37,377 nt of DNA from an uncultured Methanosarcinales archaeon (lineage in GTDB: Archaea; Nanobdellota; Nanobdellia; Woesearchaeales; DATDXC01). The translations under genes and the position numbers were made by a program. Location of the stretch: NCBI GenBank assembly GCA_964510025.1, contig CAZDZV010000013.1, positions 1 through 37,377 on the forward strand, read 5' to 3'. The notes beneath the pieces are model-generated. The model was not told the origin of the DNA. It made no database searches and was given only the letters and a program-made list of their open reading frames with translations. This document shows, in pieces, positions 22,346 through 37,377 of the stretch. The stretch's first letter is position 1. Each line of letters opens with the position of its first letter.

Positions 22346-24886
22346 TTAGAGGCTAAGGATAGCCTGCCTCTCGATAACTTCCTTGCTGCCGTTGAAGATA
22401 TACACCGATGCTTTCCTGGTCTTTGTCCTCTTGTCCACTACCTTGTGCACCTCAACATCAAAGCCAAGCTCTATGAGCTTCTTTATTGTCTTTTTCTGGA
22501 CAGAAGAAAGCTGCTCGTACTGCAGCTTGCATTCTACAAACCTGAAGCTTTTTCCGAAGAACAGGAAATCAGGCATACCATGATGCACCTTATTTATGTA
22601 TTCCAGATGCTCATGCAGGCCTGGATGGTGCCTGTCCATCAGGTCCTTGAGAAGCTGGTATTTTCTCCTTACGTTGGGGTAGATCTCGTCCTTTAGTATG
22701 CCGATAAGGCCAGCTCTCCATACATGCCCTTTTTTCTCCAGCCGCTTCCTTATCAGCTTTTCTGAAAGCCCTTTTTTGTCTTCATAATCTTTTGATACCG
22801 GGATGTACCTATGGATGACCTTTATGTATTCATGCAGCCTTGACTGCCTTTCTATTTCTGCAGCCTCTTCTATATCCTGCCTTGTGTAGCCGAATGGCTG
22901 CAGAATGACAAACAATGACCTTACAAGAAGCTTCTTGTACTGCCCTATATCCGGCTTCCTGTATTCTTCCGGCAATACCGGCCCTTTTCCATAGATGTAC
23001 CTTATGAACTGGCCGGGCATTACTGCAACGCCTTTTTTCCTAAGCTTCTCCAGTATCATCTTCTGGGGGATGTTATGCCTGTAGTTGTCCTTAGAAATCC
23101 TGACTGCTACCGTAAGAAAATCCTTATGCACATCAGGTATGGCCCCTATGACCTTTCTGAGATAGCTGCAAAGGTAGGGGAAAGCAAGATGGACCTGTTT
23201 TTTGCTGTCGATAGATTTCAGAAATTCTATGCACTGCTTCTGGAACATCTTCACTATCTCAGGGGAAGACCTTTGCCTTATCTCGATGCCCCTTGCCTTT
23301 ATCTCTCCATTCCTGAAGACGCCATAATAAGTAGAAGGCAGGGCCCTGTACTTATCGATGACAGAAGGAAGGAATGTGACCCAGCGGAATATGCCTTCAG
23401 GCATTATGGGTATGCCTGTCTCAAGCTCTATCTCCCTGCAGAAATCCCTGACTTCTTTTTCTGTTATGCCTTTTTTCTTTATGAAGACAGAGTCAACAAT
23501 TGCATGGACAACCTTAAAGCCTTTTTCCTCTGCCAGCCTTGTGACCTTAAGCAATGTCTCCCTTGCATATGCGCAGATAGCCATGTGCGATGTAGGTATG
23601 CCGAGCTTGAATTCCCTGAACCTGAGGTAGCCATAGCAGCTGACCAATACCCATTTAAGGCCTTTGGCCCTTTCCTTGTTTATTGATGTGGGATTTTTCT
23701 TATAGTGCATCCTTCTGTCGATAAAAGGCTTAAGGACAACAGGGATAAGCCCTTTGAATGCCATGGATGCCTTTACAGGAAGATCTGGTATGGATGCAAA
23801 AGGGCCCTTATCTGTAAGCATCGAGTCTGCGCTTATGTTGTGGTTGTAGATAAGCCATGGGAACATGCTTACAAAATCTATCTCAGCGACATCCTTGTGG
23901 AAGCCTATCATGGGGTCATAATAATGGCCGCCCCTGTCTGCCTTAAGCATCTCAAGCATGGTCAACGGCGGCTCTATGGGCTTTTCCTTGTATGGGACCA
24001 GCATATCCTGCATTATCATCTCCCTCATAAGGGCTGTCTGGAAAACAGCCCCAAAGCTTCTTGAGGCTGTCCTCTGGAACAATGTTCCGGATAGCTGAAC
24101 AAGCTCCATTATAGCCTCTGGCTGGCATTCTGTGCCTACAAAGCTGTGGGTGTCTACCAAAAACCTTCCTTTAAGCCTGACTGCAAAATCCTGGTAGCGG
24201 ACCTGGCCATAGCTCCAGTAGCTTTTTCCTCCCCTGTACCTTATATCATAATCATCCCATCTGTTTAAAGGGCAGCCTATTCTGTGCCTCTTCAGCCTCT
24301 GATACAGCAAAGGCATACGTGAGAAAGCGTAATCCATGACAATGCAGTCTGGATCCTCAAGCCTGAATATCCTTGAGAACTCCTCCAGTATTGCCTTTTC
24401 ACTGCCTTTTATAACCTTGCCGTTGACTTCTATGCACCTTATTTTATCTCCCTGGGAGATAACATTTAGCCTTAGTTTCTTTAGAGGGATATCTGTATGG
24501 CCCGGGATGGGGGCTATGTTTTCACCTAGGACAACAGCAGAGCAAGGCCTTATGTCATGCTTGTAGAGAAACATCTGCTCTGGGACAATATCTGCATTAT
24601 ACAAAGGGACCCTGTGCTTTGTAGCTTTTTCTATATCCCTTATGAACTTTTCAAATCCAGATATAGGCGCAGGTATCTCCAGAACATATTTGTATTTCCT
24701 AAGGTATGTCTTTTTCCTTACCTTTCTGAAAGCGACATCATTCTCCCTAAGGACTTTTTCTGCCTTTAATCCCGCATATATGGCTGTTCTGAAGTCTTTC
24801 TCGAGCCTTATGTCATCATCTCTTGTCTTGAGCCAGAGAATTATCTTGTTGCCTTTCCTGTATGCCTGCATCAGCCACGCTTTCAT
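22346..24886 (-). CDS. polB2: Family B DNA polymerase of the PolB2 type fused to a C-terminal VRR-NUC-like PD-(D/E)xK nuclease
   Basis: DFVSMFP (motif A), KWVLVSCYGY (motif B) and HAIVDS replacing YGDTDS (PolB2 hallmark). C-terminal GMPDFL...FVECK...LSSVQK. Confidence 0.85.
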   Translation of the reverse strand: MKAWLMQAYRKGNKIILWLKTRDDDIRLEKDFRTAIYAGLKAEKVLRENDVAFRKVRKKTYLRKYKYVLEIPAPISGFEKFIRDIEKATKHRVPLYNADIVPEQMFLYKHDIRPCSAVVLGENIAPIPGHTDIPLKKLRLNVISQGDKIRCIEVNGKVIKGSEKAILEEFSRIFRLEDPDCIVMDYAFSRMPLLYQRLKRHRIGCPLNRWDDYDIRYRGGKSYWSYGQVRYQDFAVRLKGRFLVDTHSFVGTECQPEAIMELVQLSGTLFQRTASRSFGAVFQTALMREMIMQDMLVPYKEKPIEPPLTMLEMLKADRGGHYYDPMIGFHKDVAEIDFVSMFPWLIYNHNISADSMLTDKGPFASIPDLPVKASMAFKGLIPVVLKPFIDRRMHYKKNPTSINKERAKGLKWVLVSCYGYLRFREFKLGIPTSHMAICAYARETLLKVTRLAEEKGFKVVHAIVDSVFIKKKGITEKEVRDFCREIELETGIPIMPEGIFRWVTFLPSVIDKYRALPSTYYGVFRNGEIKARGIEIRQRSSPEIVKMFQKQCIEFLKSIDSKKQVHLAFPYLCSYLRKVIGAIPDVHKDFLTVAVRISKDNYRHNIPQKMILEKLRKKGVAVMPGQFIRYIYGKGPVLPEEYRKPDIGQYKKLLVRSLFVILQPFGYTRQDIEEAAEIERQSRLHEYIKVIHRYIPVSKDYEDKKGLSEKLIRKRLEKKGHVWRAGLIGILKDEIYPNVRRKYQLLKDLMDRHHPGLHEHLEYINKVHHGMPDFLFFGKSFRFVECKLQYEQLSSVQKKTIKKLIELGFDVEVHKVVDKRTKTRKASVYIFNGSKEVIERQAILSL

Positions 24887-25704
24887 AGGCTATCAAAAGG
24901 GCTTTTTACATTGATCATAGCCGGACAGGCAGCATGGATATAGACCATAGAAGTTTCAGCAGAGCCATGGCCCAGCAATCCCTGCAATGTCTGAAGACTG
25001 CAACCGTTTTCAATGACATGCGTACCAAAGCTATGGCGGAAAGTGTGTGGATGGATATTTTTTTTGATTCCAGCTTCTTTTGCTGCCTTTTTTACAATTT
25101 TAAAGACAGTTTGTGTGCTTAAATGATAATTGTTATAGCCTCTAAAAACATAAGAATCATATTCCATGTTCTCACTCCAGTCTTTTAATTCATCTTTAAG
25201 TTTCTCAGCAATCACAAAAACCCTGTCTTTGTTTCCCTTTCCAGACCTTACCCAGCCATAGCTGTTGTCAAGCTCAAAATCTCTTACTCTTAAATTAACC
25301 ACCTCAGAAACCCTTAAGCCAGCGGCATACATCAAGCCTATCATAAGCTTATGTTTTTTATTTTTGACCACTGACAGAATCCTTATAAGCTCTTCTCTTG
25401 TAAGCATAGTTGGAAGGTGCTTTGGCTTTTTAGAATATCTTATGCTTAGCCTCCATCTTTTGAATAAGACCCAATCAAGCATGAATTTGATCGAGTTTAA
25501 GGCAACATTAAGAGTATTTCCTGAAAGGTTTCTGTCTGACAGATGGTTTATATATTCTTTTACATCCTTCTTGGTTATTTCATTATGGTCTTTTTTACAG
25601 TATTTTAAGAATCTTTTATTCCAAAAAACATAGGCCTTTATTGTCTTATTGCTTAACCTTCTTCTGAATGCTTCTTTTTTAATGGCTTCGACTATGTCTA
25701 ACAT
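24883..25704 (-). CDS. Tyrosine recombinase (Xer/IntI-like, N-terminal SAM-like domain), catalytically intact
   Basis: GLRVSE (R), GKGNKDR (K), HTFRH (HxxR), LLGH and VYIH (Y), with C-terminal KSPFDSL. At 273 aa it has no visible IntI-specific insertion. Confidence 0.93.
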   Translation of the reverse strand: MLDIVEAIKKEAFRRRLSNKTIKAYVFWNKRFLKYCKKDHNEITKKDVKEYINHLSDRNLSGNTLNVALNSIKFMLDWVLFKRWRLSIRYSKKPKHLPTMLTREELIRILSVVKNKKHKLMIGLMYAAGLRVSEVVNLRVRDFELDNSYGWVRSGKGNKDRVFVIAEKLKDELKDWSENMEYDSYVFRGYNNYHLSTQTVFKIVKKAAKEAGIKKNIHPHTFRHSFGTHVIENGCSLQTLQGLLGHGSAETSMVYIHAACPAMINVKSPFDSL

Positions 25705-25814
25705 ACTGATTCACCTAAAAATAATCCTGGCGGGCTTATTTAAATATCTCACGCACCTAAATGTCTTGTGCCTGTGGTAGGGTGATCTTGGGCTTTTAGG
25801 TCCTTTATCAATCA

Positions 25815-25842
25815 AATTTCCATAAGTCAGGTAATGTCCAGT
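25815..25842. other. Candidate recombinase-proximal dif-like site (attI analogue)
   Basis: AATTTCCATAA-GTCAGG-TAATGTCCAGT has the same arm/6-bp/arm layout as the downstream junctions, with a degenerate right arm. Confidence 0.4.
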
Positions 25843-25914
25843 GGAATCTTAATTTCTTGTGAAAATTTTCTTTCATTTACCTCAAATGCTTAAGAAACAG
25901 TCAGATAATTAATT

Positions 25915-26193
25915 ATGCATCCAGATACTAAAATTACATTGATTACGCTTCCAATAAGTAAGAAAACATTTGAGGTGAAAAAAATGAAAGAAATAGATGA
26001 AATATGGCTCCAAAGGAAATTTGCAATGGATAGATTGTATGATGATACCGAGAAGTTATTACGCTATAACTCCCTTTGCGCACAAAGATTGCAATCTGAA
26101 GCAGAATCTGGGACATGTGCTCCAAAGCTATTCCCAGGATGTCAAAATCAAAGAGATTGCTATTATACCTTACCAGTAGTCACGAAAAAGTGA
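25915..26193 (+). CDS. Hypothetical protein (possible cassette 0); start uncertain
   Basis: ORF lies between two candidate sites. SD-like GAGGTGA precedes the internal ATG (MKEIDEIW). Confidence 0.5.
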   Translation: MHPDTKITLITLPISKKTFEVKKMKEIDEIWLQRKFAMDRLYDDTEKLLRYNSLCAQRLQSEAESGTCAPKLFPGCQNQRDCYYTLPVVTKK

Positions 26194-26248: not shown

Positions 26249-26276
26249 AATACGTATATAAATAGTTACATTCAAT
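26249..26276. other. Cassette junction J0 (degenerate left arm)
   Basis: AATACGTATAT-AAATAG-TTACATTCAAT. GTTACATTC (26265-26273) is the reverse complement of GAATGTAAC (27898-27906). Confidence 0.65.
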
Positions 26277-26441
26277 AAAATTTTACTTTTTACACGAGAA
26301 AAACGGGGTTTCCTAAAAAAACTGAAGGGGGAAAATCTCTTTAATGTTTTAATTGATTGGCTGGGCTAAAAAAATTAGAAATCGAAAGATATATATATAT
26401 ATCCTTTGATAGAAAATAGATATATACTACTTTAAAGGAGG

Positions 26442-27584
26442 ATGAAAAAAATGAAAAATAAATATTTGATTCTGAGCCTGTTTGTGATTGGGATTTTAAT
26501 GTCAAGTTCTCTTGTTTCTGCTGGTTGGTTTGATTGGCTGTTTAGAGATAAAAATGTTGTTGGAGAGGCGTATGCTGGAATAAGTCCAAGTGCATGTAAT
26601 TATTATAAACAAAAGTGCGAGGATACTAATTATAAATATCATCAAAGATATTGTGATATTTGGGATAAATATTGTAAACCTACTTGTGATGATGGGATCA
26701 AAAACGGAAATGAAGAAGGTATAGATTGTGGTGGTGATTGTAAACCTTGTTCAAATGTTGTAAGCCCTAAATTTGAAGAATTATGGGTCGACAAAGTTTA
26801 TCCATTATCACAAAATTATATATCTTTTACTACAGATGCCTTAGTACAATACTCAGCAGATGGAAACAAGAAGAACACTTACGGATATGATGAAAATGGT
26901 GGAAGAATCACCGCAAGTGGCGATTTAACATTAGACCCATCCAAATATGTCATAACAAAATCAAAAGCATTAGTCCATTATTCAAGTGATGGCAATAACA
27001 AGCACACAGTAGAATTTCAGAGCGATGGTACAAGATTTACCACAAATAATGATTTAATCTTCGATCCTGCAAGATATGTTGTTGCTAAAACTGATGCTAT
27101 TGTTCAATATTCAGGAGATGGAAATAATAAAAATACATATGGCTTTGATGACCAAGGGGGAAGAATAACAGCAAACGGAAATCTTAATCTTGATCCATCA
27201 CAATATGTTGTGGTTAATAGTGATGCTATTGTTCAATATTCAGCGGATGGTCAAAATAAGAATACTTATGGTTACGACAATAATGGGGGCAGAATCACTG
27301 CAAATGGAGACCTAACACTCGACCCATCTAAGTATGTAATCACTAAATCTAAAGCATTAGTTCATTACTCTAGTGATGAAAACATTAAACATACTGTAGA
27401 ATTTGAAGATGGTAGTAGAGAATTCTCCATGGGAACTAGATTAACTACTGCTGGAGATTTAACATTAGATCCTGCTGGTAATGTTATAGTTAATGGAGAT
27501 TTAGTTTTATTATCTCCTGATGGGTCTAAATGGAAAATAGAAGTAAGTAATTCTGGAGAATTATCAACTGAAAAAATTCAATAA
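26442..27584 (+). CDS. Secreted repeat-containing surface protein (cassette C1)
   Basis: Signal peptide, CDDGIKNGNEEGIDCGGDCKPC motif, five ~43-aa repeats and C-terminal LLSPDGSKWKIEVSNSGEL. SD GGAGG. Confidence 0.85.
   Translation: MKKMKNKYLILSLFVIGILMSSSLVSAGWFDWLFRDKNVVGEAYAGISPSACNYYKQKCEDTNYKYHQRYCDIWDKYCKPTCDDGIKNGNEEGIDCGGDCKPCSNVVSPKFEELWVDKVYPLSQNYISFTTDALVQYSADGNKKNTYGYDENGGRITASGDLTLDPSKYVITKSKALVHYSSDGNNKHTVEFQSDGTRFTTNNDLIFDPARYVVAKTDAIVQYSGDGNNKNTYGFDDQGGRITANGNLNLDPSQYVVVNSDAIVQYSADGQNKNTYGYDNNGGRITANGDLTLDPSKYVITKSKALVHYSSDENIKHTVEFEDGSREFSMGTRLTTAGDLTLDPAGNVIVNGDLVLLSPDGSKWKIEVSNSGELSTEKIQ
26832..27485 (+). repeat. Five ~129-bp intragenic coding repeats (A-B-A-A-B)
   Basis: A type: TDALVQYSADGNKKNTYGYDENGGRITASGDLTLDPSKYV. 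B type: SKALVHYSSDGNNKHTVEF... Confidence 0.85.
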
Positions 27585-27894
27585 TTTTTTTATTTTTCTT
27601 TTTTAGCTTAGCCTTTATGTTATTTCTGAAAGAGAGATTTCCCCCTTAATATATTTGTTAGATTGGGCTAAGCCCTCGATAAACGGAAACCCCTTAAAAT
27701 ATAGTCTCGCTAACGCTCGAATTGATAAAAAAGTAAGAATTTTACTCTGCGGAATTTTGCTACGCAAAACCGCCCTTTCGGGCTTTCCTTGTCCTCCCCA
27801 CTCCGCAATTGTATTTCTTCTGTAACTAAATGTATTACTTTAAAGAACCTGATGTTTATATTGCTGTAAACCTATAAACAATTGCTCGTAGGTC

Positions 27895-27922
27895 GGCGAA
27901 TGTAACAGGCATTATGCGAAAT
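27895..27922. other. Cassette junction J1, dif-like site
   Basis: GGCGAATGTAA-CAGGCA-TTATGCGAAAT. Confidence 0.8.
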
Positions 27923-28179
27923 TTTTTATTTGCCTCGTCGGTAAACGCCGACTTTCTGGATGATAATTTCTTTTCCCATACAAAGCTCAAAGAAATTCTC
28001 TTCCGGAAAGCAAGGGCTTACGTCGAAAATGCTAATGTTACTGCCTTCGTTTAATCGGGGATTAAACGGCTACGTACGAGTCAAGCTCTACTCCGACCTA
28101 AATTTTTTATTATATTAGAATTGGGGGCTAGTTAGGTTAAAATTTATATATTAAGTCCGATTATCTAATCTATTCTAAA

Positions 28180-29172
28180 ATGGCAAAGGCTAAAGAAAGC
28201 AGTTTTAAAAGAATTGGCGAATCTGAAACATGGGAAAAGGGACAAAAAGCAAGCGTGGCAACTGTTCTAGAAAGGAAAGATGGTGTTAAAGGAATTTCTA
28301 TCAAAATTGGCAAAAAAGTTCCTTATCAATCTCGTCCAAGATACGGAAAAACAATCTGGATAGATGAAGAATTAGACTTGCCTTCTTGGCTTAATTGGTT
28401 TATCAGAACTATCAAGAATATGTACTTAAAGGTATTTGGTAAGAGGGTCACTGGAATTGATGAAGAATCTGAATATTATAGGACTAGAACTGAACAATTA
28501 ACTAAAGAATTAGCTGAAACACAGAGAAAACTTGAAGAATCTGAGCAGAAACAAATCTCAAATAAGCACATTGTAAGCCTAGCACAGAAATCAATTGAAA
28601 ACTTAGATAACTATCAAACAGTATTTAATGAATTCAAATCGAACATAAATGAAAGTTTGGATAAAGGCGTTGGATTTGAAGAAAAGATAAAAACTAAGAT
28701 AATGGATAATAGATGGTTATTAGGTTTAGAATGCCAAGTAGAAGCAAAGAATGAGAACGTAGATAAACAAACTCAAATCGATTTACATGTCAAAACTAAA
28801 TATAATCAAGATAGAATATTTGAGGTAAAAAGCCCCAATATAAAACCAGTGATTCGAAAGGATAACAAAGAAAAACGAAGATTCATAATTTCTCCAGATT
28901 TAGCTGATGGTTTAAGTGAACTAATTTTATATATGCGAAGAACGGATATATATTCTCAACATAAGAATGAGGGTCTTTACGGAATTCAGAAAGCTTCAGG
29001 ATGTATCTTAATCGGTTATAATCTCAGCGATTCGGAACTAGAGTTATTAAAGGAACTGAATTTTCACTTAGGTCCGCATATTCAAATTGTTACATATAAT
29101 GATCTTATTAAAAATATTGAATCTGAAATGACAATAATTAAAACTGTCAAAGAAGAAATAACAAAACAATAA
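28180..29172 (+). CDS. Shedu-like (SduA/DUF4263) defence nuclease with coiled-coil N-terminal region (cassette C2)
   Basis: QIDLHV...IFEVKSP PD-(D/E)xK core, LADGLSELILY, ILIG and IQIVTYNDLI C-terminus typical of DUF4263. Confidence 0.7.
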   Translation: MAKAKESSFKRIGESETWEKGQKASVATVLERKDGVKGISIKIGKKVPYQSRPRYGKTIWIDEELDLPSWLNWFIRTIKNMYLKVFGKRVTGIDEESEYYRTRTEQLTKELAETQRKLEESEQKQISNKHIVSLAQKSIENLDNYQTVFNEFKSNINESLDKGVGFEEKIKTKIMDNRWLLGLECQVEAKNENVDKQTQIDLHVKTKYNQDRIFEVKSPNIKPVIRKDNKEKRRFIISPDLADGLSELILYMRRTDIYSQHKNEGLYGIQKASGCILIGYNLSDSELELLKELNFHLGPHIQIVTYNDLIKNIESEMTIIKTVKEEITKQ

Positions 29173-29176
29173 ACCT

Positions 29177-31894
29177 CTAAATCTTATCTAAAATTGTCTC
29201 AACAATTTCAATCTCTTTTTTATTCAATCCATACAACTTGTAAACTTCTTGGTCTATTTCATCATCTAATTTTTTAATTTCTTTTTCTAAGCGAACTTTT
29301 TCATCAGTTTTCTTATTATGTAATTTAGTTAATGCTTCATTTTTTTGTATAATATTGCCTACTAAATCTTTGATTTTATTCTGTTGGCTAGGCTTAGATT
29401 TTATAATAGGTAATACTCTCAATTGCGGAGCTTGATATTGATAATATCCCCCACTCATTCTAAGTCCTGAGAATAATTCTCCATAAATATAACTCATTAG
29501 TTTTGAGTTAAGTAAACCAGCTAAAAACAATAAATCATATCCATCTTTTGGTGAATGAACACAATTAGTATTTATAGAAGCATAATCACCTTTCAAATCA
29601 ACAAACCCCTCTAATCTTAGTGCAAGTTTAGCAAATACAATTTTTTGATTTTGATATAACTCCTTTCTAGTATCTTTTATTTTACTAATATCTAATTTTG
29701 GAAAAAATAATTGCTTTCCTTTATTTAAGAATCTGACATATCCATAGGATGTCGCAAATCTGTCAATAGTACCTGAATTTAAGATTGACAAACCGTCAAT
29801 CCCTTCTTTAATGTGTTTTGAGAATTCATCTGATTCTGCTGCAGTACTTGTAGCTTGAACCTCTGCACACTCTTCAAGCGGGGTTGAATTATTATATATC
29901 CTCTCAATAATTTTTGCGCCTTTGGTCAGTAGGAGCCCCCAGATATTTTCAGGTAGCATTTCCAGATTTTTTGAAGATATTTTATCAGAAATAATTTTTG
30001 AATTCTCATCAATTTCAAATCTCTCTATTTGGATATCATACCTCTTTTCTTGTTTGATTTTTTGGAAAATAGTAACTACAGGATATACAGAAGGATCTTC
30101 AAAAACGTTTACTTGAGATAAATCAAATATTTTCACTAATTTATAATTCTGATTAATAAATTGCCTAAATGCTACACCATATGGAGAGGATAAAAATTTA
30201 TTAGGAGTAATAAATGCTACATAGCCACCATATTTACATAAATTGAGTGCTTGTTCAAAAAACAAAATATATATGTCATATGTTCCACGAGATGAACTAT
30301 ATTTATTTTTCCAAAAGTCTTTAACCTCTTTGCCGTAAGTCTTTGTTAGTTGTATCGCATTAATATAAGGAGGATTACCAATAACTACATCAAAACCCCC
30401 CTTGTCCATTATTTCTCTAAATTCTTCTTGCCATTTGAGAGGTTTGAACTTTACAAATCTAATATCATCAATCAAAGAATTCCCAACTTTGATATTCTCT
30501 TGCAATGTAGGCAATCTATGCTTTTTCTCAGCAGCCTTTAACAACAGATTCAATTGTGCAATCTCTACAGCTTTAGCATCTAAATCAACACCAAAAATAT
30601 TATCTTTAAGAATCTCAACCTTTCTTCCGTAAGTTGCAGATTCTCCGGTTAAATCTAGCTTTGTTTGGTCTATCTCACCATTTTTCTTTTTATCAAGAGT
30701 TACCAAATAATCAAAAGCCTTCATTAAGAAGCTTCCAGAACCGCAGGCAGGATCAAGAATCTTGATATTTTTTAAATCAAATTTCCTGTCTTTCGCTAAC
30801 TCTCCTACTGTGTTCTTAACAATATAATCAACTACATAGGTAGGAGTATAATAAATGCCTTGCTCTTTTCTATGCGCCTTGCCATTAGAAAGTTTTGCTC
30901 TTTTTGGTGTTGTTTTAAGTATATGTCCCAAGTATTGCTCATATATATTACCAAGAACATCAGCATCGATAACTCCAAAATCGTAATGTACTGTATTATC
31001 GGATGTCTTGAATAACCCTCTTATTACTTTTTCAAGAATATTATCATCAATTTCCAAATCTTCGCATAAATGCTGTACAAATAACTTACTATTATAGATA
31101 TTATCTATTTGCCTAAATAAATTATTCAGCTTTTTATACACTCTTTTATGAGTATCTTCCCTTATAAGAGATTGCAGCATCGGAGCTTCCAGTTCTTTGT
31201 CTTCCAATGTTCTGATAAAGATAAGCCTGTCTAAAATCCTTTGTACTGATTCGTCTAACTCATCAACAGACAAATTCTTAGAAGCATTATCTTTTAGGAT
31301 GTTTTTTGATAAGATTTCTCTAAAAACTGTCATATCCGTTAGAAGCTGCTTATCTACGGGAACCTTCTTGGCTTTTTTACCCCATTTTTCCGCTTCTTTA
31401 TCTATCTCATTGCTTGCAAAACTCTCTTTTGATAATAGCCAAAGCTGGTCAAACCTATCAAGAAATTGCTGACAATTAATCCCAAAAAACATATTTTGAA
31501 GAGGATTTGCAGATTTCCATTCAGCATTGAATACTTTTATTCCCTCAAAATCCGATAAGATTGCCCAAGTACATCCTTTATGCCAAGAGTAATTGATTGC
31601 CTGCTCTACAAATTTTATGTTCTCTAAGTCTTCTTTTAGTGATTTAGCTTCAAGAAAGAATTTAGGTATTCCATCAATCCTAAAACCGTAATCTACTCTT
31701 TTTCTAGAAATCTTTTCTTCAGCAGTTACTTCTTCTCCATCCTCTACTTTCCAGCCTAAAGCACGAAATAAAGGAAGAATGAAGTCTTTTTTAGTCATCT
31801 CCTCATTATAAGATTTTAGTCTGCCAGATTGAACAACTTGGTCATATTTCTCAACTAACAGTTGAATTTCTTTTTTGGCTGTTTCCTTGTCCAT
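29177..31894 (-). CDS. Type IIG restriction-modification fusion enzyme (REase + N6-adenine MTase + TRD) (cassette C2)
   Basis: N-terminal RVDY...FLEAK nuclease, GIYYTP, ILDPACGSGSFL, FDVVIGNPPY and a C-terminal specificity/helical region. Confidence 0.93.
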   Translation of the reverse strand: MDKETAKKEIQLLVEKYDQVVQSGRLKSYNEEMTKKDFILPLFRALGWKVEDGEEVTAEEKISRKRVDYGFRIDGIPKFFLEAKSLKEDLENIKFVEQAINYSWHKGCTWAILSDFEGIKVFNAEWKSANPLQNMFFGINCQQFLDRFDQLWLLSKESFASNEIDKEAEKWGKKAKKVPVDKQLLTDMTVFREILSKNILKDNASKNLSVDELDESVQRILDRLIFIRTLEDKELEAPMLQSLIREDTHKRVYKKLNNLFRQIDNIYNSKLFVQHLCEDLEIDDNILEKVIRGLFKTSDNTVHYDFGVIDADVLGNIYEQYLGHILKTTPKRAKLSNGKAHRKEQGIYYTPTYVVDYIVKNTVGELAKDRKFDLKNIKILDPACGSGSFLMKAFDYLVTLDKKKNGEIDQTKLDLTGESATYGRKVEILKDNIFGVDLDAKAVEIAQLNLLLKAAEKKHRLPTLQENIKVGNSLIDDIRFVKFKPLKWQEEFREIMDKGGFDVVIGNPPYINAIQLTKTYGKEVKDFWKNKYSSSRGTYDIYILFFEQALNLCKYGGYVAFITPNKFLSSPYGVAFRQFINQNYKLVKIFDLSQVNVFEDPSVYPVVTIFQKIKQEKRYDIQIERFEIDENSKIISDKISSKNLEMLPENIWGLLLTKGAKIIERIYNNSTPLEECAEVQATSTAAESDEFSKHIKEGIDGLSILNSGTIDRFATSYGYVRFLNKGKQLFFPKLDISKIKDTRKELYQNQKIVFAKLALRLEGFVDLKGDYASINTNCVHSPKDGYDLLFLAGLLNSKLMSYIYGELFSGLRMSGGYYQYQAPQLRVLPIIKSKPSQQNKIKDLVGNIIQKNEALTKLHNKKTDEKVRLEKEIKKLDDEIDQEVYKLYGLNKKEIEIVETILDKI

Positions 31895-31940
31895 ATTCTA
31901 AATATCAAAGACAACTAATTTATAAATATTCCTTAAAATT

Positions 31941-32219
31941 TTATTCTAAGCTGTGATTGTTAAAAAACCACCTATATTTATCATTTAGTTTATCATAGCA
32001 GCTTTGACATATTCCTGTTTTATTAACACCAAGATTATCAATTTTGCTTCCGCAAGTGATACATAAATTATTCATCAAATTGTGCAAATCAAATAGAATC
32101 ATACTTTTTGTGTCATTTGGAATCTTAGAATTATCAAGCTCTTTTTTCAGTCTTTTCATTAATAAAACTCTTTCAAAGTCATCTTTAGTTTCCTCTCTAT
32201 ATTTATTTATCTTATTCAT
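31941..32219 (-). CDS. Small hypothetical protein with CxxC...CxxC
   Basis: CITC...CQSC. Overlaps the upstream gene by 4 nt. Confidence 0.6.
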   Translation of the reverse strand: MNKINKYREETKDDFERVLLMKRLKKELDNSKIPNDTKSMILFDLHNLMNNLCITCGSKIDNLGVNKTGICQSCYDKLNDKYRWFFNNHSLE

Positions 32220-32899
32220 CTCATCCTTAAAGCTTGACCTTTAAATTTACCATTAAACTCAATATCATCAAAGACATTAACCAATATTGTCGCTACCCAT
32301 GAAGCTGTTGATAATCCATTCATATTTCCGTTATATGCCAATTTTATTTGACCTTCTATTGTTTCAGGATTAGTTGCGATTCTACTGGCACCTATTTTTA
32401 TCCAATTTGCTTTATTTTCTTTTAGGTAATTGTAAGCAGCTTCAAATCTCTCTTTCTCTACCCTAATTTTATTTCCTGAAGAAGTAAAACCAATCTTTAT
32501 GCCCCAATCAGACAACTCTTCAATGATAAAACTTTGACCTTTGCTTGAAGGAGAGATTAATTGCATATTCTTATGGTGCTGTAAATAATCATATATCTTT
32601 TTCCACATATTCTCATCTCCTTTGCTTTTCTTGCCTAAGAATTTAAGAAAAGGAGTTTCCTTTTTCTCTGGTTGTTTTGGGTTATACATCCAATAATTAT
32701 CTTTATGGATTACTCTATTTTCTTTTTGAAAAAAGTTAAGATAAGGCGAAACTGCCCCCATCTTAGCCCCCAATTCATTAGATAATTCAATAACAGTAAA
32801 GGCCTTATCACTATTCTCTCTCAAAAAATCAATAAGTTTATCTTTTAGCGATTCGGATTTTCTATCCAAATTTTTAAATTCTTCTCGACTTATAGGCAT
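32216..32899 (-). CDS. Hypothetical protein with N-terminal winged HTH
   Basis: LIDFLRENSDKAFTVIELSNELG helix-turn-helix pattern. SD AGGTGA and a TATA box upstream. Confidence 0.7.
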   Translation of the reverse strand: MPISREEFKNLDRKSESLKDKLIDFLRENSDKAFTVIELSNELGAKMGAVSPYLNFFQKENRVIHKDNYWMYNPKQPEKKETPFLKFLGKKSKGDENMWKKIYDYLQHHKNMQLISPSSKGQSFIIEELSDWGIKIGFTSSGNKIRVEKERFEAAYNYLKENKANWIKIGASRIATNPETIEGQIKLAYNGNMNGLSTASWVATILVNVFDDIEFNGKFKGQALRMR

Positions 32900-33088
32900 A
32901 TCAAATCACCTTCTTATATGTTTATATGTTGTGTATATATGTATGTATATATAAATGTTTCTATTTTAACCCCCAATTCTTACGAAAGTTAGTCTGTTAC
33001 ACAGAAATCTATAATTAACATATAATAAAAAACTACGGCAGTAACGCATTTTCGACAAATAAAAAGCTACGCTCACCATCAAAGGTTC

Positions 33089-33117
33089 ACTTCGCATAAT
33101 CAAATGCTATGCGGTTG
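33089..33117. other. Cassette junction J2, dif-like site (7-bp spacer)
   Basis: ACTTCGCATAA-TCAAATG-CTATGCGGTTG. Confidence 0.75.
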
Positions 33118-33208
33118 CGTTACTCAAGCCATCAAAGACTTTGCGTTACTCTCCCAAATTTTTTAATGCCGACAAAACCAAAAGGTTTATATATTAGTGG
33201 TTATTTTT

Positions 33209-33244
33209 ATAACCAGATGGTTATTTAATTGACCAAGTGGTCAA
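33209..33244. promoter_or_regulatory. Tandem palindromic operator sites between the TATA box and the MNT start
   Basis: ATAACCA-GA-TGGTTAT (33209-33224) and TTGACCA-AG-TGGTCAA (33229-33244), with a 20-bp period. A further half-site lies at 33198-33204. Confidence 0.7.
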
Positions 33245-33245
33245 G

Positions 33246-33785
33246 ATGGACGAAATACTCAAAAACAATATATACAAAATACTAGAACTTTTTATAGAGA
33301 ATCCCAGTAAAGATTTTTCTGTTCGGGGCATTGCCCGGAAATTAGATTTGAGCCATGCTACTGTGATAAAATATGTCTCTAATCTATTTTCCTTAAATCT
33401 AATAAAAAAGAAAGAAGATACTTTATATCCAACCTACTATGCTAACACTGAAAGTGATAAGTATAAGTTTTACAAGAAAAATTATATATTGTTTAAGATA
33501 AAAGAGTCTGGCATAGTTGGATATATCCAAAAACAAACTTTAGCATCTTCGATAATCTTATTTGGGAGCTGCTCAAAGGGGGCATTTACAGAAAAAAGCG
33601 ATATAGATATCTTTGTAGAAGCTAAAGAATCAGGTTCAGATATAAGTAAATATGAAAAAAAGCTAAACAGAAAAATCAATCTTTTATTTGAGCCAAATAT
33701 CAATAATCTTTCAAATGAGCTAAGAAATAACATCATAAATGGTATAATCTTATATGGTTTTATAAGGATTAATGGAGGGAAATAA
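33246..33785 (+). CDS. wHTH + minimal nucleotidyltransferase (MNT antitoxin) (cassette C3)
   Basis: FSVRGIARKLDLSHATV HTH and ILFGSCSKG...SDIDIFV. ATG 33246 is preferred over GTG 33237. Confidence 0.88.
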   Translation: MDEILKNNIYKILELFIENPSKDFSVRGIARKLDLSHATVIKYVSNLFSLNLIKKKEDTLYPTYYANTESDKYKFYKKNYILFKIKESGIVGYIQKQTLASSIILFGSCSKGAFTEKSDIDIFVEAKESGSDISKYEKKLNRKINLLFEPNINNLSNELRNNIINGIILYGFIRINGGK

Positions 33786-33788
33786 AAA

Positions 33789-34214
33789 ATGGCAGATAAA
33801 ATAAGCTGGAAAGAATGTGTTGACCAGAATATCATAACAAAAACAACTCCAGATAAAGAAAGATCATTGCAGATGCTTAACATGGCAAATTTAAGGCTGG
33901 AATTTTGGGATAAAAAAATCAATGATAAGTTTATTGCCCTAAAAGTTGAGGCATATTATGATATAATAAAAGAGCTTATTTTTGCCCATATGTATAAGAA
34001 TGGATTCAATTGCACAAACCATTTATGCTTAATAGCCTATCTTAGAGAGAAATTTGAAAATTTTGATTTTGAAATTGATAAGACAGATGAATTGAGAAAA
34101 CTAAGGAATGAGATAAATTATAGGGGATTCTCTGTTCAAAAAGACTACTTAGACAGGAATGAACTAGAGTTTAAGAGTATTATAAACAAGCTAAAAGATA
34201 GCCTAAAAAAATAA
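33789..34214 (+). CDS. HEPN-domain toxin (cassette C3)
   Basis: AYYDIIKEL...NHLCLIAYL...RKLRNEINY (Rx4Y variant). Lies immediately downstream of the MNT gene. Confidence 0.8.
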   Translation: MADKISWKECVDQNIITKTTPDKERSLQMLNMANLRLEFWDKKINDKFIALKVEAYYDIIKELIFAHMYKNGFNCTNHLCLIAYLREKFENFDFEIDKTDELRKLRNEINYRGFSVQKDYLDRNELEFKSIINKLKDSLKK

Positions 34215-34314
34215 TTTTTCGTTTTTGAGTATTTCTTATTGTTTTGTCAGCAAATAAAAAACTCTCTCGCTACGCTCGAGCCTGCCAGCTCGAGTCTCTT
34301 CGAGCCTCGAGGGC

Positions 34315-34342
34315 AGGTCGCATAACATTGATTATAAGAAAT
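34315..34342. other. Cassette junction J3, dif-like site
   Basis: AGGTCGCATAA-CATTGA-TTATAAGAAAT. Confidence 0.8.
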
Positions 34343-34397
34343 ATTACTCAGAAAACTTTTTTAGTTTTTAGAAGGGGGCTTTGAGAACCTATTAATA

Positions 34398-35072
34398 TTA
34401 AATGTTAGCTAAATCTTCAAATCTATTGTAACAGACATCCCTTATATTCCAATCACCATCTTCCGGTAGACCTGTACAAGATTCATCTGCATAACATTCA
34501 AATTTTAGTTTTGTAGGTAGATTATCACAATCACTATTTTCTGGTATTACTAAAGCTCTTTTTAACAAACATTCTTTAATTGATTCTTCTGGATATTGAT
34601 TGCAATCAATACTTGTAGTTTTATCAGGATATTCCATTTTTACCCAATCTCTTAATCTATTTTGATTGTTTGTTTTATCAAAATATTTGATCTCATAATT
34701 TTCTTGTGGTAAATTTTTAATTTTAAATTTTATATTCCTGTCACAATTACACATTTCTGGAAAATAGAACATCTTATCTTTAATATATAAATTTATGATA
34801 TTTGCTTCAAGTTTATAATCTCCATCAATATTTCCACCACAATTAAAATTTGTTTTTCCAGAAATTATTAGGTCATTTCCAATCCATTGTATATCAGTTA
34901 ACTTTTCAAATCCAGAAGTTAAAAAATTGTTTTCTTTACAATCTTCATAATCAAATGAATAATTTAGAAATAAATATTTGATACCAGCAAAATAAAATAG
35001 ACCTAAAAGTATTATGACTGCTAATATAATTAAGCTGATTTTATGTTTTGATATAAGATTGCTTACTTGCAT
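34398..35072 (-). CDS. Membrane-anchored Cys-rich extracellular protein (cassette C4)
   Basis: N-terminal TM helix, FNCGG...MCNC and several further Cys residues. Confidence 0.75.
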   Translation of the reverse strand: MQVSNLISKHKISLIILAVIILLGLFYFAGIKYLFLNYSFDYEDCKENNFLTSGFEKLTDIQWIGNDLIISGKTNFNCGGNIDGDYKLEANIINLYIKDKMFYFPEMCNCDRNIKFKIKNLPQENYEIKYFDKTNNQNRLRDWVKMEYPDKTTSIDCNQYPEESIKECLLKRALVIPENSDCDNLPTKLKFECYADESCTGLPEDGDWNIRDVCYNRFEDLANI

Positions 35073-35267
35073 TTAATATAATATAAGCGGTTATTTATAT
35101 AAATATTGTGTTCTCAAAGCCCCTTAATCTATTCACAATAATGCCCTTCGGGCTCGAACAAAAAGTTTTCTTGCGTCATACCTCGATGATTTCTCGAGTG
35201 TTACGCTCACAGCTGTTCGCTACACCTCAAGCCCTCTTCGAGTTTTTGCTCCATTACATTCCGCAAA

Positions 35268-35295
35268 AATTCTTATAACAGGCATTAAGTTCAAT
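35268..35295. other. Cassette junction J4, dif-like site
   Basis: AATTCTTATAA-CAGGCA-TTAAGTTCAAT. The spacer is identical to that of J1. Confidence 0.8.
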
Positions 35296-35464
35296 AAAAT
35301 TTGAGTTCCTTGCCGAGTAATAAAAACTGCAGAAATAAGGCATTTATTTATAAATAAAGATTACCTGATACAGTGTTTTAAGTTTAATTCTCGTCGATAA
35401 TCAATATAAAAGGTTAAATTTATATAGTAAAACCACATCCAGTACTTTCCAAGGGTGGAAAAAT

Positions 35465-35704
35465 ATGAAAAACGATGATGTCATAGGACTCTTAGAAAGG
35501 ATCGATAAGAAGCTTGGATTGATACTGGGAAACCAAATCACTGAGAAGGAGGGCAACATAAAGGCACAGGTGGCCAGACTTGCCAAATCAAATCTGGGCT
35601 CTATTGAGATTGCACAAATACTGGGAATAAGTCCAGCTCATGCGTCCAAAGAATTATCGATCATAAGGAAGGTGAAGAAGCATGAAAACAAAACAGAAGA
35701 ATGA
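35465..35704 (+). CDS. Small coiled-coil + HTH protein, paralog 1 of 6
   Basis: LERIDKKLGLIL...LGSIEIAQILGIS. Confidence 0.8.
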   Translation: MKNDDVIGLLERIDKKLGLILGNQITEKEGNIKAQVARLAKSNLGSIEIAQILGISPAHASKELSIIRKVKKHENKTEE

Positions 35705-35903
35705 ACTTGACCTATTACAGGAAATCAACAATAAGCTTGATATGCTTGTTGCTTTGACTGCCGCCCAAGGAAAAGATAGAGACGAGCAGATCCGAACTTT
35801 AGCAGGTCTAAGCTTTACTAATGCTGATATCAGCAGGCTTCTGGGAATCCCTAAGGGAACTGTTGATGTTGTCAGAGCGAAAAAGAAGAGTGGTAAAAAA
35901 TGA
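35682..35903 (+). CDS. Small coiled-coil + HTH protein, paralog 2 of 6
   Basis: LQEINNKLDMLVAL...FTNADISRLLGIPKGTV. SD AGGTGA. Confidence 0.8.
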   Translation: MKTKQKNELDLLQEINNKLDMLVALTAAQGKDRDEQIRTLAGLSFTNADISRLLGIPKGTVDVVRAKKKSGKK

Positions 35904-36133
35904 ACCCTGATCAGTTTTCAATAATTGAAAAAAAGCTCAACACCGTAATAAAGTTGTTAGCCATGCAAGCTATTGGCGATAAAGAGTATCGCCAACAAAT
36001 CACACTTCTTGATGCTATGGGTTTCCAGCAAAAGGAGATTGCAGACTTAACAGGAAAAACCACAAACAATGTGAAAGTCACGCTTCACCACATTAGGAAA
36101 TCACAAAAGAAAGGTGGAAAGAAAAATGAATGA
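35900..36133 (+). CDS. Small coiled-coil + HTH protein, paralog 3 of 6
   Basis: IEKKLNTVIKLLA...GFQQKEIADLTGKT. ATGA overlap with the upstream gene. Confidence 0.8.
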   Translation: MNPDQFSIIEKKLNTVIKLLAMQAIGDKEYRQQITLLDAMGFQQKEIADLTGKTTNNVKVTLHHIRKSQKKGGKKNE

Positions 36134-36317
36134 TAAGCAATTTGATGAAATCTGCAAAAAGTTAGACCGGATTTTTGCAATCATTGCAGTCCAGAGTATA
36201 GAAAATAAAGATGATAAGATTTACACACTAAAAAATTTAGGCTTCAAAAGCGATGAGGTTAACCCCATTGTTGGCGTAAAGAGCTGTAGGCAAATGGAAG
36301 GATGGAAAAGAAAATGA
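36126..36317 (+). CDS. Small coiled-coil + HTH-like protein, paralog 4 of 6
   Basis: ICKKLDRIFAIIA...LKNLGFKSDEVNPIVG. Start placed at ATG 36126. Confidence 0.75.
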   Translation: MNDKQFDEICKKLDRIFAIIAVQSIENKDDKIYTLKNLGFKSDEVNPIVGVKSCRQMEGWKRK

Positions 36318-36511
36318 ACGATCCTGAAATCACAAAAAAGCTAGACACAATAATTGCACTTCTTGCAACACAAGGTAAAGAAGATGTAGAAAAACTAAAG
36401 ATAATGAAAGCTTTAGGCTATCCTTATAGTGAAATCAGTAAATTACTTGGAGTTCCTGAAGGAACATTAAAAACATGGGATTTTAAAAATCGAAAGTCCA
36501 AATCAAGGTGA
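36314..36511 (+). CDS. Small coiled-coil + HTH protein, paralog 5 of 6
   Basis: ITKKLDTIIALLA...GYPYSEISKLLGVPEGTL. ATGA overlap at 36314. Confidence 0.8.
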   Translation: MNDPEITKKLDTIIALLATQGKEDVEKLKIMKALGYPYSEISKLLGVPEGTLKTWDFKNRKSKSR

Positions 36512-36516
36512 TAACT

Positions 36517-36729
36517 ATGGAATCAGATGATGCTAAAAAAATTATTCGGCGTTTAGACGTGATGATAAACCTATTAATGAGTAGCAGCCAACAGAATCCT
36601 ATTAAAGACTCTGATAAGATAGCTTCTTTGCATGGTTTGGATCTTAGCGCAGCAGAAATTGCTGAAATTACAAACAAAAGCAGACAAAATATTGATGTTG
36701 TGCTTAGGAGACTTAAGCAGAAAAAATAA
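36517..36729 (+). CDS. Small coiled-coil + HTH protein, paralog 6 of 6
   Basis: IIRRLDVMINLL...LSAAEIAEITNKSRQNI. SD AGGTGA before ATG 36517. Confidence 0.8.
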   Translation: MESDDAKKIIRRLDVMINLLMSSSQQNPIKDSDKIASLHGLDLSAAEIAEITNKSRQNIDVVLRRLKQKK

Positions 36730-36730
36730 A

Positions 36731-37377
36731 ATGGATATACAAGAATTAATTGCACGTGGTCGTTTTATCTTCAATGGCGCGCCCAAAAGACTTGATGCTT
36801 ACAGAGAAGTAAATGGGAGAAGAAATGCAAAAGAGATTTCGAAGAAAATTGGAAGGAACCTCTCTTCAACTCTAGCCGATCTTCAAAAAATTAAAGATAT
36901 TGGCTTAATACAGCTCAAAGAAGATGGACAAGGTAGACCAATAAAAAAGGATAATTCAATTATCTATGAAAAAACATCTCTAGCAAGATGCATTTCTTTA
37001 TCCTATTTTAAAGATCCAATTAAAGCCCAGAAATCTATTAAAAAATTCACTCCAAAAAGCAAAGGCAAAAAAATAGCGATAAATTATCCTGCATTTTTAT
37101 CAGAGACGGAAGTTATAGATATTTGCAGAACAGGGGAAGATCAAATACATGAATTTAAGGCTGCAGGAACTGATATTAAAAAAATAACTGAGGAAGTAGC
37201 AGCAATGCTCCATAATAGAGAAGGTGGTTTAATATTTTACGGAGTAGAAGATAATGGAGATATTACAGGTACGGATAAAAAAAGTCAAGATATGGATCAG
37301 CCATTACAAAATTCAATAAGGAATTCAATAGACCCCTCGCCCCCTGCGGTAAAACTTAAACAACTTACGGTTGCAGG
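36731..37377 (+). CDS. wHTH + Schlafen/AlbA_2-domain protein, partial (runs off the right end of the window)
   Basis: Translated by hand: MDIQELIARGRF...NAKEISKKIGRNLSSTLADLQKIKDIGLI (wHTH)...GEDQIHEFK...VAAMLHNREGGLIFYGVEDNGDITG (AlbA_2 signature). Confidence 0.88.
   Translation, partial: MDIQELIARGRFIFNGAPKRLDAYREVNGRRNAKEISKKIGRNLSSTLADLQKIKDIGLIQLKEDGQGRPIKKDNSIIYEKTSLARCISLSYFKDPIKAQKSIKKFTPKSKGKKIAINYPAFLSETEVIDICRTGEDQIHEFKAAGTDIKKITEEVAAMLHNREGGLIFYGVEDNGDITGTDKKSQDMDQPLQNSIRNSIDPSPPAVKLKQLTVA

Follow-up and report, generated by a model that had tools for sequence, protein, structure and literature searches.

A candidate integron-like cassette array, with inverted repeats enclosing its units, beside an Xer-type recombinase gene of a woesearchaeal archaeon

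The stretch analysed here, referred to below as the window, is an entire contig of 37,377 nucleotides (nt) from an uncultured archaeon of the Woesearchaeales (genome G000, 1.7 Mb in 33 contigs; the window is G000:C13). The guanine-plus-cytosine (GC) content falls along this contig from ~45% to ~32% at 25 kb, and a gene for an Xer-type tyrosine recombinase sits on that border. To the right of it accessory genes are grouped into successive units, here called cassettes C1 to C5, which lie head to tail and are separated by short junction sites. We believe, on balance, that an integron-like cassette array, served by a dedicated XerA-like recombinase, occupies the region right of 25705.

The recombinase gene (24883-25704, minus strand) is transcribed away from the array and encodes a protein of 273 amino acids (aa) that matches the Pfam family Phage_integrase (4e-42). 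This protein aligns end to end with the archaeal XerA 4a8e (E 7.5e-39) and reaches 218.2 bits with the NCBIfam model XerA_Arch (NF040815), for which the cut-off is 220; the integron integrase model TIGR02249 gives 205 bits in two stretches, with a cut-off of 265. Its best match in the PDB is IntI4 (2a3v), in an alignment that places query residues 176-192 opposite residues 180-239. The ~43 residues missing there indicate that the IntI-specific insert, the additional domain near patch III, is missing from the recombinase. Overlapping the end of its gene by 4 nt is a minus-strand gene (22346-24886) for an 846-aa protein with a family B DNA polymerase domain (5.7e-12) and a C-terminal VRR-NUC nuclease domain; given this overlap the pair looks co-transcribed.

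Three Xer-type genes are present in the genome in total. One is a housekeeping-type xerA on contig G000:C5 (21611-22465; NCBIfam 230.8 bits), 34% identical to the array-linked enzyme, and ~70 nt upstream of it (~22530-22555) lies a perfect 8-6-8 palindrome, TCGTATAA-TATACA-TTATACGA, that is probably the chromosomal dif. The third is a second array-type recombinase gene on contig G000:C22 (18096-19224) with an attI-like site, TAATAGATG followed directly by TTAAGTTCAAT; the contig ends ~210 nt beyond that site. It is probable that this genome holds two cassette platforms.

Between the array-linked recombinase gene and C1 lies a leader region. Conserved boxes stand beside the integrase gene at 25750-25844 (plus strand), namely CACGCACC..ATGTCTTGTGCCTGTGG at 25750-25777 and ATGTCCAGTGG at 25834-25844, and the layout of a TATA element plus CACGCACATGTCCAGTG(N)CCAGTGG is also found upstream of orthologous integrases. 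A small open reading frame (ORF; 25984-26193, plus strand; 69 aa from an internal ATG) is preceded by a AACATTTGAGGTG leader, likewise in several relatives. It has no Pfam or NCBIfam match, and tblastn over the fetched loci returned nothing. The ORF could encode an accessory factor, and two TGTCCAGTG-like boxes could be its binding or regulatory sites. The leader ends in an attI-like site, CGTATAT-AAATAG-TTACATTCAAT (26253-26276, plus strand), immediately left of C1. Its right half is as at the junctions inside the array; its left half, CGTATAT, is conserved and differs from the left halves of internal junctions. The window shares the motif C[GA][TC]ATA[TA]-6 nt-TTANNNNNAAT with 12 of the 28 further integrase loci that were scanned; in each of them it stands upstream of the gene.

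The junctions between cassettes share a core of the form ...TAAC-N4-ATTA-N4-[C/A]AAT. The pattern TAAC-N4/5-ATTA-N4-[ACT]AAT has five matches in the 1.7-Mb genome, three of them in the window array and one in the continuation of the array described below. Every junction points in the same direction and is laid out as an R'' ending in ...TAA, a centre of 6 nt (CANNNA) and an R' beginning the next cassette (TTANNNNNAAT). By inspection and counts it consists of two ~11-bp inverted arms around a 6-bp centre, which is the 11-6-11 type of Xer/dif sites; the cores look like bacterial dif. The genes themselves run in both directions within the array. Alternating GGCATTA and TAATGCC motifs had raised the idea of invertible segments, which was dropped because the cores are direct repeats.

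C1 (26266-27911, plus strand) opens with R' (26266-26276) and a left arm (26276-26375), and carries one gene (26442-27584, plus strand) for a secreted protein. Four tandem 129-nt repeats in this gene (26827-27429, 60-73% identity) mark the product as a repeat protein; its N-terminal part is Cys-rich. The right side comprises a right arm (27599-27744), a spacer (27745-27894), R'' (27895-27905) and the centre CAGGCA (27906-27911). C2 (27912-33105, plus strand) begins with R' TTATGCGAAAT (27912-27922) and a left arm (27923-28151) with a side hairpin at 27941-28021; a hairpin with 33-nt arms lies inside the 125-nt stretch 27937-28061 of this flank. Its four genes (28180-32899) comprise a Type IIG restriction-modification enzyme (2e-127) and three genes of no assigned family, one of them weakly Shedu-like. 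They are followed by the right arm (32947-33065), a short spacer, R'' ACTTCGCATAA (33089-33099) and a degenerate centre (33100-33105); the homologous core in another genome, G013, is canonical.

C3 (33106-34331, plus strand) has a degenerate R' (33106-33116), a left arm in two blocks (33167-33178 and 33252-33266) and a nucleotidyltransferase gene with a partner (33237-34214) that match the candidate defence families PDC-M05A (1e-12) and PDC-M05B (4e-4). Its right side is made up of an arm (34221-34252), a spacer (34253-34314), R'' (34315-34325) and the centre CATTGA (34326-34331). In C4 (34332-35284, plus strand), R' TTATAAGAAAT (34332-34342) and the left arm (34342-34404) precede a gene on the minus strand (34398-35072) for a small Cys-rich membrane protein; the right arm (35070-35171), spacer (35172-35267), R'' AATTCTTATAA (35268-35278) and centre CAGGCA (35279-35284) complete the unit. 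No relatives of the C4 protein were found in metagenome contigs, and the homologues that the restriction-modification gene and the two C3 genes have in other genomes do not stand in an arm or core context.

C5 runs off the contig. Its left part (35285-37377, plus strand) shows R' TTAAGTTCAAT (35285-35295), a left arm (35295-35311) and genes for small helix-turn-helix (HTH) proteins and a Schlafen/AlbA_2 protein. An earlier note on this DNA, made from the sequence of the window alone, had predicted for C5 a right end beyond the window that carries complements of 35285-35400 as well as an arm of the form ...GAACTTAA, and such an end was found on another contig of the genome (reverse complement of G000:C23, ~130-297). 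Only one further copy of the 15-mer at 35295-35309 exists in the genome, GGAACTCAAATTTTA; it lies near the end of that contig and is oriented as a pairing partner. After it, in array orientation, come a spacer and then CGACGAACTTAAC ATCG ATTATGCTCAAT, and the array goes on along this contig through ~7 kb of low-GC DNA. Since ends of the C5 type form a family, physical continuity of the two contigs is likely rather than proven. At the far end of this low-GC island (reverse complement of G000:C23, ~7360-7450) we also observed GACCAGTGG and CCACTGGACA boxes of the recombinase-proximal type.

Nested inverted repeats enclose these cassettes, as the earlier note had first pointed out. All 24 strings (12 pairs) that it quoted lie where it had placed them, and one, CAAATAAAAA, has a further copy at 34251; of these pairs, seven are fully complementary and five carry 1-2 mismatches or a 1-2-nt indel. 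A blind scan, in which exact inverted seeds were chained over the whole contig, recovers chains that bracket the same units. Its top-ranking chain joins the two flanks of C2 (28022-28151 with 32947-33056, score 22.4), the second those of C4 (34350-34404 with 35070-35171, score 16.8), and the fourth those of C1 (score 10.4, with exact seeds only).

Cognate flanks also pair better than controls. We co-folded the flanks, with DNA parameters, in a panel of 20 cassettes (six of this genome and 14 of three relatives, from four loci). Cognate flanks gain about -20 kcal/mol, as compared with about -8 (standard deviation 2.5) in 380 non-cognate pairs, and they rank first in 13 of the 20 cassettes on the top strand and in 14 on the bottom strand; for the six cassettes of this genome the ranks are 2, 1, 4, 1, 1, 1 on the top strand and 1 throughout on the bottom strand. 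With 25 dinucleotide shuffles made for each cassette, the cognate value was never equalled (z from -2.9 to -15). Among the cassettes of the window, C2 has a co-folding free-energy difference (ddG) of -28 and z of -15, C4 ranks first on both strands (z -9.1) and C1 first on the bottom and second on the top strand (z -3.8). C3 is the weakest case: it ranks second by alignment, and co-folding places it fourth (top strand) or first (bottom strand), with z of -3.7. Alignment scores of the flanks agree with the folding, with a cognate mean of 22.7 against 13.1 (standard deviation 2.9) for non-cognate pairs and the cognate pair first in 13 of 20. The view that cassette ends are complementary in a partner-specific way is thus borne out.

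This complementarity extends into the junction itself. R', the ~11 nt that open a cassette, is complementary to R'', the ~10 nt that precede the next core. At the seven variable positions cognate R'/R'' pairs agree in 3.95 on average and non-cognate pairs in 2.84, and none of 100,000 permutations reached the observed mean; C1 to C5 score 5-6 of 7 (C1 5, C2 6 and C4 6). The left arm begins at the last T of ..AAT, and the right arm stops just before the spacer, a GC-rich stretch of 23-150 nt that precedes R''.

We therefore looked at the shape that the two ends take when united, by joining the right end of each cassette to its own left end and folding this circle junction. In all 10 minimum-free-energy structures printed, an apical stem of 8-9 bp with a 6-nt loop is formed by the core; below it, again in all 10, come one or two spacer side hairpins and then the arm stems with further side branches. 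This shared picture implies that the inverted repeats of a cassette together represent a single hairpin element, divided in two by a cut at the tip. The proposed geometry, the reverse of attC, agrees with these folds, which give one long imperfect hairpin, and the folded form would join both junctions. One detail had to be revised: the spacer had been placed at the tip, which the folds assign to the dif-like core (arms of 8-11 nt around 6 nt), while the GC-rich spacer branches off to the side, 5' of the core. Six inter-cassette stretches had also been folded as DNA to see the spacers as attC-like hairpins; z ranged from -2.7 to +0.7, no common hairpin emerged and this candidate was rejected.

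The position of the crossover can be read from the junctions. The last base of the centre is G at 8 of 12 attI sites and A at all 19 internal junctions (the search pattern allowed A or G), which suggests that the centre stays with the left partner and that exchange takes place between the centre and TTA. Independent support comes from the left end of C5, which is identical to sequences at two other loci (L178 and L180) from exactly position 35285 on, with the three upstream sequences unrelated.

Several asymmetries between the strands were noted. On the core-sense strand, hairpins with a TTC triloop closed by C:G outnumber those with GAA by 14 to 1 in 38.7 kb of arrays, as against a genome background of 70 to 61 in 1.65 Mb. 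On the bottom strand these hairpins read C-GAA-G, which is the motif of unusually stable DNA mini-hairpins. When the ends are joined, 18 of 20 circle junctions have the more stable fold on the bottom strand (mean difference -2.8 kcal/mol); the parameter set DNA_Mathews1999 returned the same values as the 2004 set, and so is no independent check of this difference. In tyrosine recombination it is the bottom strand whose exchange falls on the right side of the centre, and retention of the centre by the left partner is what such a bottom-strand exchange would produce. Hairpin bias, fold stability and crossover side are weak clues that point to the bottom strand, as in integrons.

The same organization recurs in other genomes. 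Recombinase orthologues in relatives are 46-65% identical to the enzyme of the window. Where identity is at least 46%, the contig ends less than 1 kb upstream of the integrase at 12 of 18 loci, and metagenome contigs with at least 43% identity end within 500 nt upstream in 7 of 11 cases; such frequent breaks fit a variable, repeat-rich region. Locus L038 (genome G084) has four cassettes, with four cores all on the plus strand. Locus L076 (genome G281) has nine cores, all on the plus strand, and eight of its ten top repeat chains bracket one unit each, with scores of 17-26. A metagenome contig, L081, shows the same cassette architecture. A loose core pattern, by itself, was no commoner than its reversed control in 301 genomes of the order, being informative solely where clustered, as in G281. 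More distant recombinases, at L090 (45% identity) and L093 (38%), head rows of repeat-bracketed units with variant cores; at L093 a hairpin lies between R'' and R', a layout that is nearer to the classical attC. In the upstream region of L093 (575-3550), units bracketed by arms of the GTTGTGCGAAAT / ATCGCACAAC type alternate with gene-less hairpin units between R'' and R'.

Individual end elements recur as well, around different genes. Ends of the C5 type have R' plus AAAATTTGAGTTCC at the left and, at the right, a module of 65-81 nt; they are 92-100% identical around unrelated cargo at L178, L180 and L181, in other Woesearchaeota. The cargo between them measures ~0.9 kb at L178, ~1.65 kb at L181, ~2.5 kb at L180 and at least 2.4 kb here, and tblastx between these cargoes detected no similarity. 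The description of the arms as largely cassette-specific accordingly holds within one array and fails across genomes, where C5-type ends recur around unrelated cargo. Spacers behave similarly: the one at 27740-27892 is 97% identical in another genus (G004), between unrelated flanks, and the spacer at the right end of C5 is 79% identical to one at L076. At locus L167 (G013:C19, reverse strand, ~1320-1610) homologues of two C2 modules, the left flank and the right end with its spacer, are separated by only ~90 nt without a gene and look like an empty version of the end element. An exact 19-mer of a conserved side hairpin is found in nine species, represented by six Woesearchaeota, two single-cell genomes of Nanoarchaeota and one genome labelled Methanosarcinales. 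In circular form, to judge from these sequences, each family would be one contiguous recombination element with any cargo, as in families of attC.

Taken together, these data make us confident that this is an array of cassettes whose ends are the halves of split hairpins. The following steps would account for it. In the circular cassette, R'/R'' and the arms would form a contiguous imperfect hairpin of 250-350 nt, the counterpart of attC, with the dif-like palindromic core at its apex. Integration would cross over at this apex, between the central 6 nt and TTA, and would split the hairpin so that its halves become inverted repeats around the genes. In single-stranded DNA, most likely that of the bottom strand, which encodes the integrase, the halves would pair again and join the two flanking junctions, and exchange of one strand would free the cassette, in parallel to integrons and CTXphi. 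We infer from the arrangement that the recombinase acts on these sites and that cassettes are mobile; their excision, with single-stranded folded DNA as the recombination substrate, is likewise proposed here as a model, and its single-stranded bottom-strand step is put forward tentatively.

A number of observations weigh against such an interpretation. The 15-nt pair of C3 scores 10.0 in the blind scan, within the background of 7-11 of unrelated chains. A generic repeat finder, in its 25 longest gapless inverted pairs, returned only one of the flank pairs of the earlier note; it misses most of them because the blocks are short and gapped. Three of the 20 panel cassettes (L76_7, L78_1 and L78_2), whose boundaries may be misplaced, give no cognate arm signal, and ~8 of 20 match poorly in R'/R'', for the most part those in which near-identical spacers recur. 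Neighbouring sites differ in their central 6 nt, which would block ordinary double-strand Xer recombination, so that a special mechanism is needed. The score of the recombinase lies below the cut-off of the XerA model, and its binding to these sites is presumptive. The strand clues are modest and partly dependent, as many of the TTC hairpins are copies of one conserved element, and the counts of G.T wobbles for the two strands, 81 against 103, come from noisy alignments. No whole cassette was seen in two contexts, end elements alone recurring.

Direct traces of movement were sought in read data as well. Three runs of one study contain the region, as Logan contigs at ~5x depth, and in these no excised circle, empty site, deletion junction or presence/absence variant of a cassette was found, which also counts against mobility. 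Loose contig ends occur at 27945, 33174, 34203 and 35267/35299, one contig of run X3 skips 125 nt (27937-28061; weak, with a shorter side of 25 nt) and there is one odd back-joint in AT-rich sequence. The self-junction pattern, in which a cassette's own R'' meets its own R', had no match in viral contigs and matched in 3 of 401 genomes; the one match examined as a possible circle, L184, is a junction between two cassettes. Nine genomes flagged as unpublished are counted in this survey and in that of the loose core pattern; none of the individual claims depends on them.

Other explanations of the same features have to be considered. The recombinase could act on double-stranded DNA at the dif-like cores, the arms and spacers being accessory DNA (protein-binding sites like those of cer/psi, cruciforms or relics) with no single-strand folding involved. 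The core in the circular form is indeed an ordinary Xer-type palindrome (8-11/6/11), and the spacers lie on one side of it and are conserved in sequence between genera, for which the 280-bp cer site with its accessory proteins, as described in excerpts of a published account (PMC5357621), offers a comparison. The arms, however, vary between neighbours yet match their own partners, which implies selection on pairing and not on a protein-binding sequence, and the strand-biased side hairpins would be left unexplained. Moreover, in the portions cited of a study of Xer recombination in A. baumannii, excision usually requires identical central regions (PMC11705084), so the differing centres of neighbouring sites favour exchange of one strand. 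We regard double-strand recombination as rather unlikely, although it is the strongest of the alternatives. The pairing might instead operate in RNA, with a read-through transcript in which the cassette ends form a stem for processing or stabilisation, as happens in archaeal rRNA operons. With RNA parameters the flanks pair strongly too, the bottom strand being more stable in 16 of 20, and the side hairpins are strand-specific. However, the pairing ends are recombination-type junctions beside a recombinase gene, with homology breakpoints exactly between A and TTA; genes in both orientations share one array; and Rfam, at gathering thresholds, matched nothing but the tRNA. By inspection, AT-rich TATA-like sequence lies between the left arm of C1 and its gene, so that the arm is probably outside that gene's transcript. 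A role of this kind in RNA seems improbable to us.

Inverted ends that come in families with different cargo, and the apparently cargo-less C2 end element in G013, would also be in keeping with non-autonomous transposons, with terminal inverted repeats and passenger genes, moved in trans by a transposase. Yet there are no target-site duplications, successive units meet head to tail at dif-like cores of one orientation, none of the 21 window ORFs scanned matched a transposase family, and the arrays begin at an attI-like site beside an Xer-type recombinase in many genomes; transposons of this sort are a very improbable source of the array. As to chance matches in AT-rich intergenic DNA, chains scoring 7-11 do occur all along the contig and the C3 pair is in that range. 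Against this, cognate pairs exceed both non-cognate and shuffled controls, the predicted end of C5 exists and the pattern recurs in other genomes. Chance is refuted for C1, C2, C4 and C5, and as a general account its probability is close to nil.

The cassette array with split-hairpin ends shares much with integrons. The crossover consensus of integrons is GTTRRRY, cut between the G and the first T, and here too the crossover falls just 5' of a TTA. As in integrons, the tyrosine recombinase gene is divergent from a one-directional array, with an attI-like site adjacent; the sequence that opens a cassette can pair with an inverse core close to its other end; the recombination elements keep their fold better than their sequence, form families with varied cargo and give hints of an active bottom strand; and the cargo is rich in defence and toxin-antitoxin-type genes. 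There are differences as well. In integrons the hairpin is cut near its base, whereas here it is cut at the apex, so its halves flank the genes; the pairing partner stands at the other end of the cassette, and the six inter-cassette stretches folded gave no self-folding attC (R''-L''...L'-R'). The core is dif-like, and the genes run in either direction. The archaeal integrons of Ghaly et al. 2022 have, in the extracts cited, classical attC sites and IntIs with the IntI domain, which the recombinase here lacks (PMC9668308).

Other Xer-related systems resemble the array in part. In CTXphi integration one strand is exchanged. In integrative mobile elements exploiting Xer (IMEX) of the CTXphi type a dif-like site is combined, as in the model proposed here, with a folded single-stranded attachment structure, there of ~150 nt, and with tandem build-up at one site; according to the passages cited, these are phages that use host XerCD and hold the whole site within the folded stem (PMC5357621). 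Here, by contrast, we find small gene cassettes, a dedicated recombinase and a site at the hairpin tip. The pdif/xrs cassettes of Acinetobacter plasmids also bound accessory genes with Xer-type 11-6-11 sites, often with differing centres, as serial modules; there, in the sections cited, sites are mostly inverted, host XerCD/FtsK acts and excision was undetected (PMC11705084), while the present array has direct-repeat cores, a dedicated recombinase paralogue adjoining it and long cassette- or family-specific inverted repeats outside the cores. The archaeal XerA/dif system shares the length and fold family of XerA, imperfect 11-6-11 palindromes and, in the portion cited, further inverted repeats flanking dif (PMC2958812); that housekeeping system has one site, for dimer resolution, and no cassettes, whereas serial sites here separate accessory genes. 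Full-text literature searches retrieved no paper on Xer-type cassette arrays in archaea, and a term search of the accessible text of a 2021 review of archaeal tyrosine recombinases returned no instance of 'cassette', 'IMEX' or 'DPANN'. It looks as if this cassette system is related to bacterial integrons but differently built, and seemingly undescribed in print.

We raise the possibility, to which we lean somewhat less than to its contrary, that DPANN archaea possess a second kind of integron, with an Xer-type enzyme that lacks the IntI domain, a hairpin element cut at its apex and excision on the folded bottom strand by a single exchange. The sites are short and well defined, which makes binding, cleavage and strand preference accessible to direct tests using purified protein and oligonucleotides. 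In bacteria, integrons are the textbook machinery of gene capture, and the finding bears on their origin from Xer-like recombinases and on the creation of cassettes, both open questions. With its plain Xer-type enzyme, its dif-like sites and a hairpin geometry turned round, the array could represent either an independently evolved solution or an early version of the integron idea. Should this be a second kind of integron, end families shared by varied cargo would provide a window on how cassettes are made. The hosts are ultra-small archaea with poorly known routes of gene exchange, and the restriction-modification, toxin-antitoxin-like and surface-protein cargo suggests that they may draw on a swappable pool of defence and surface genes.

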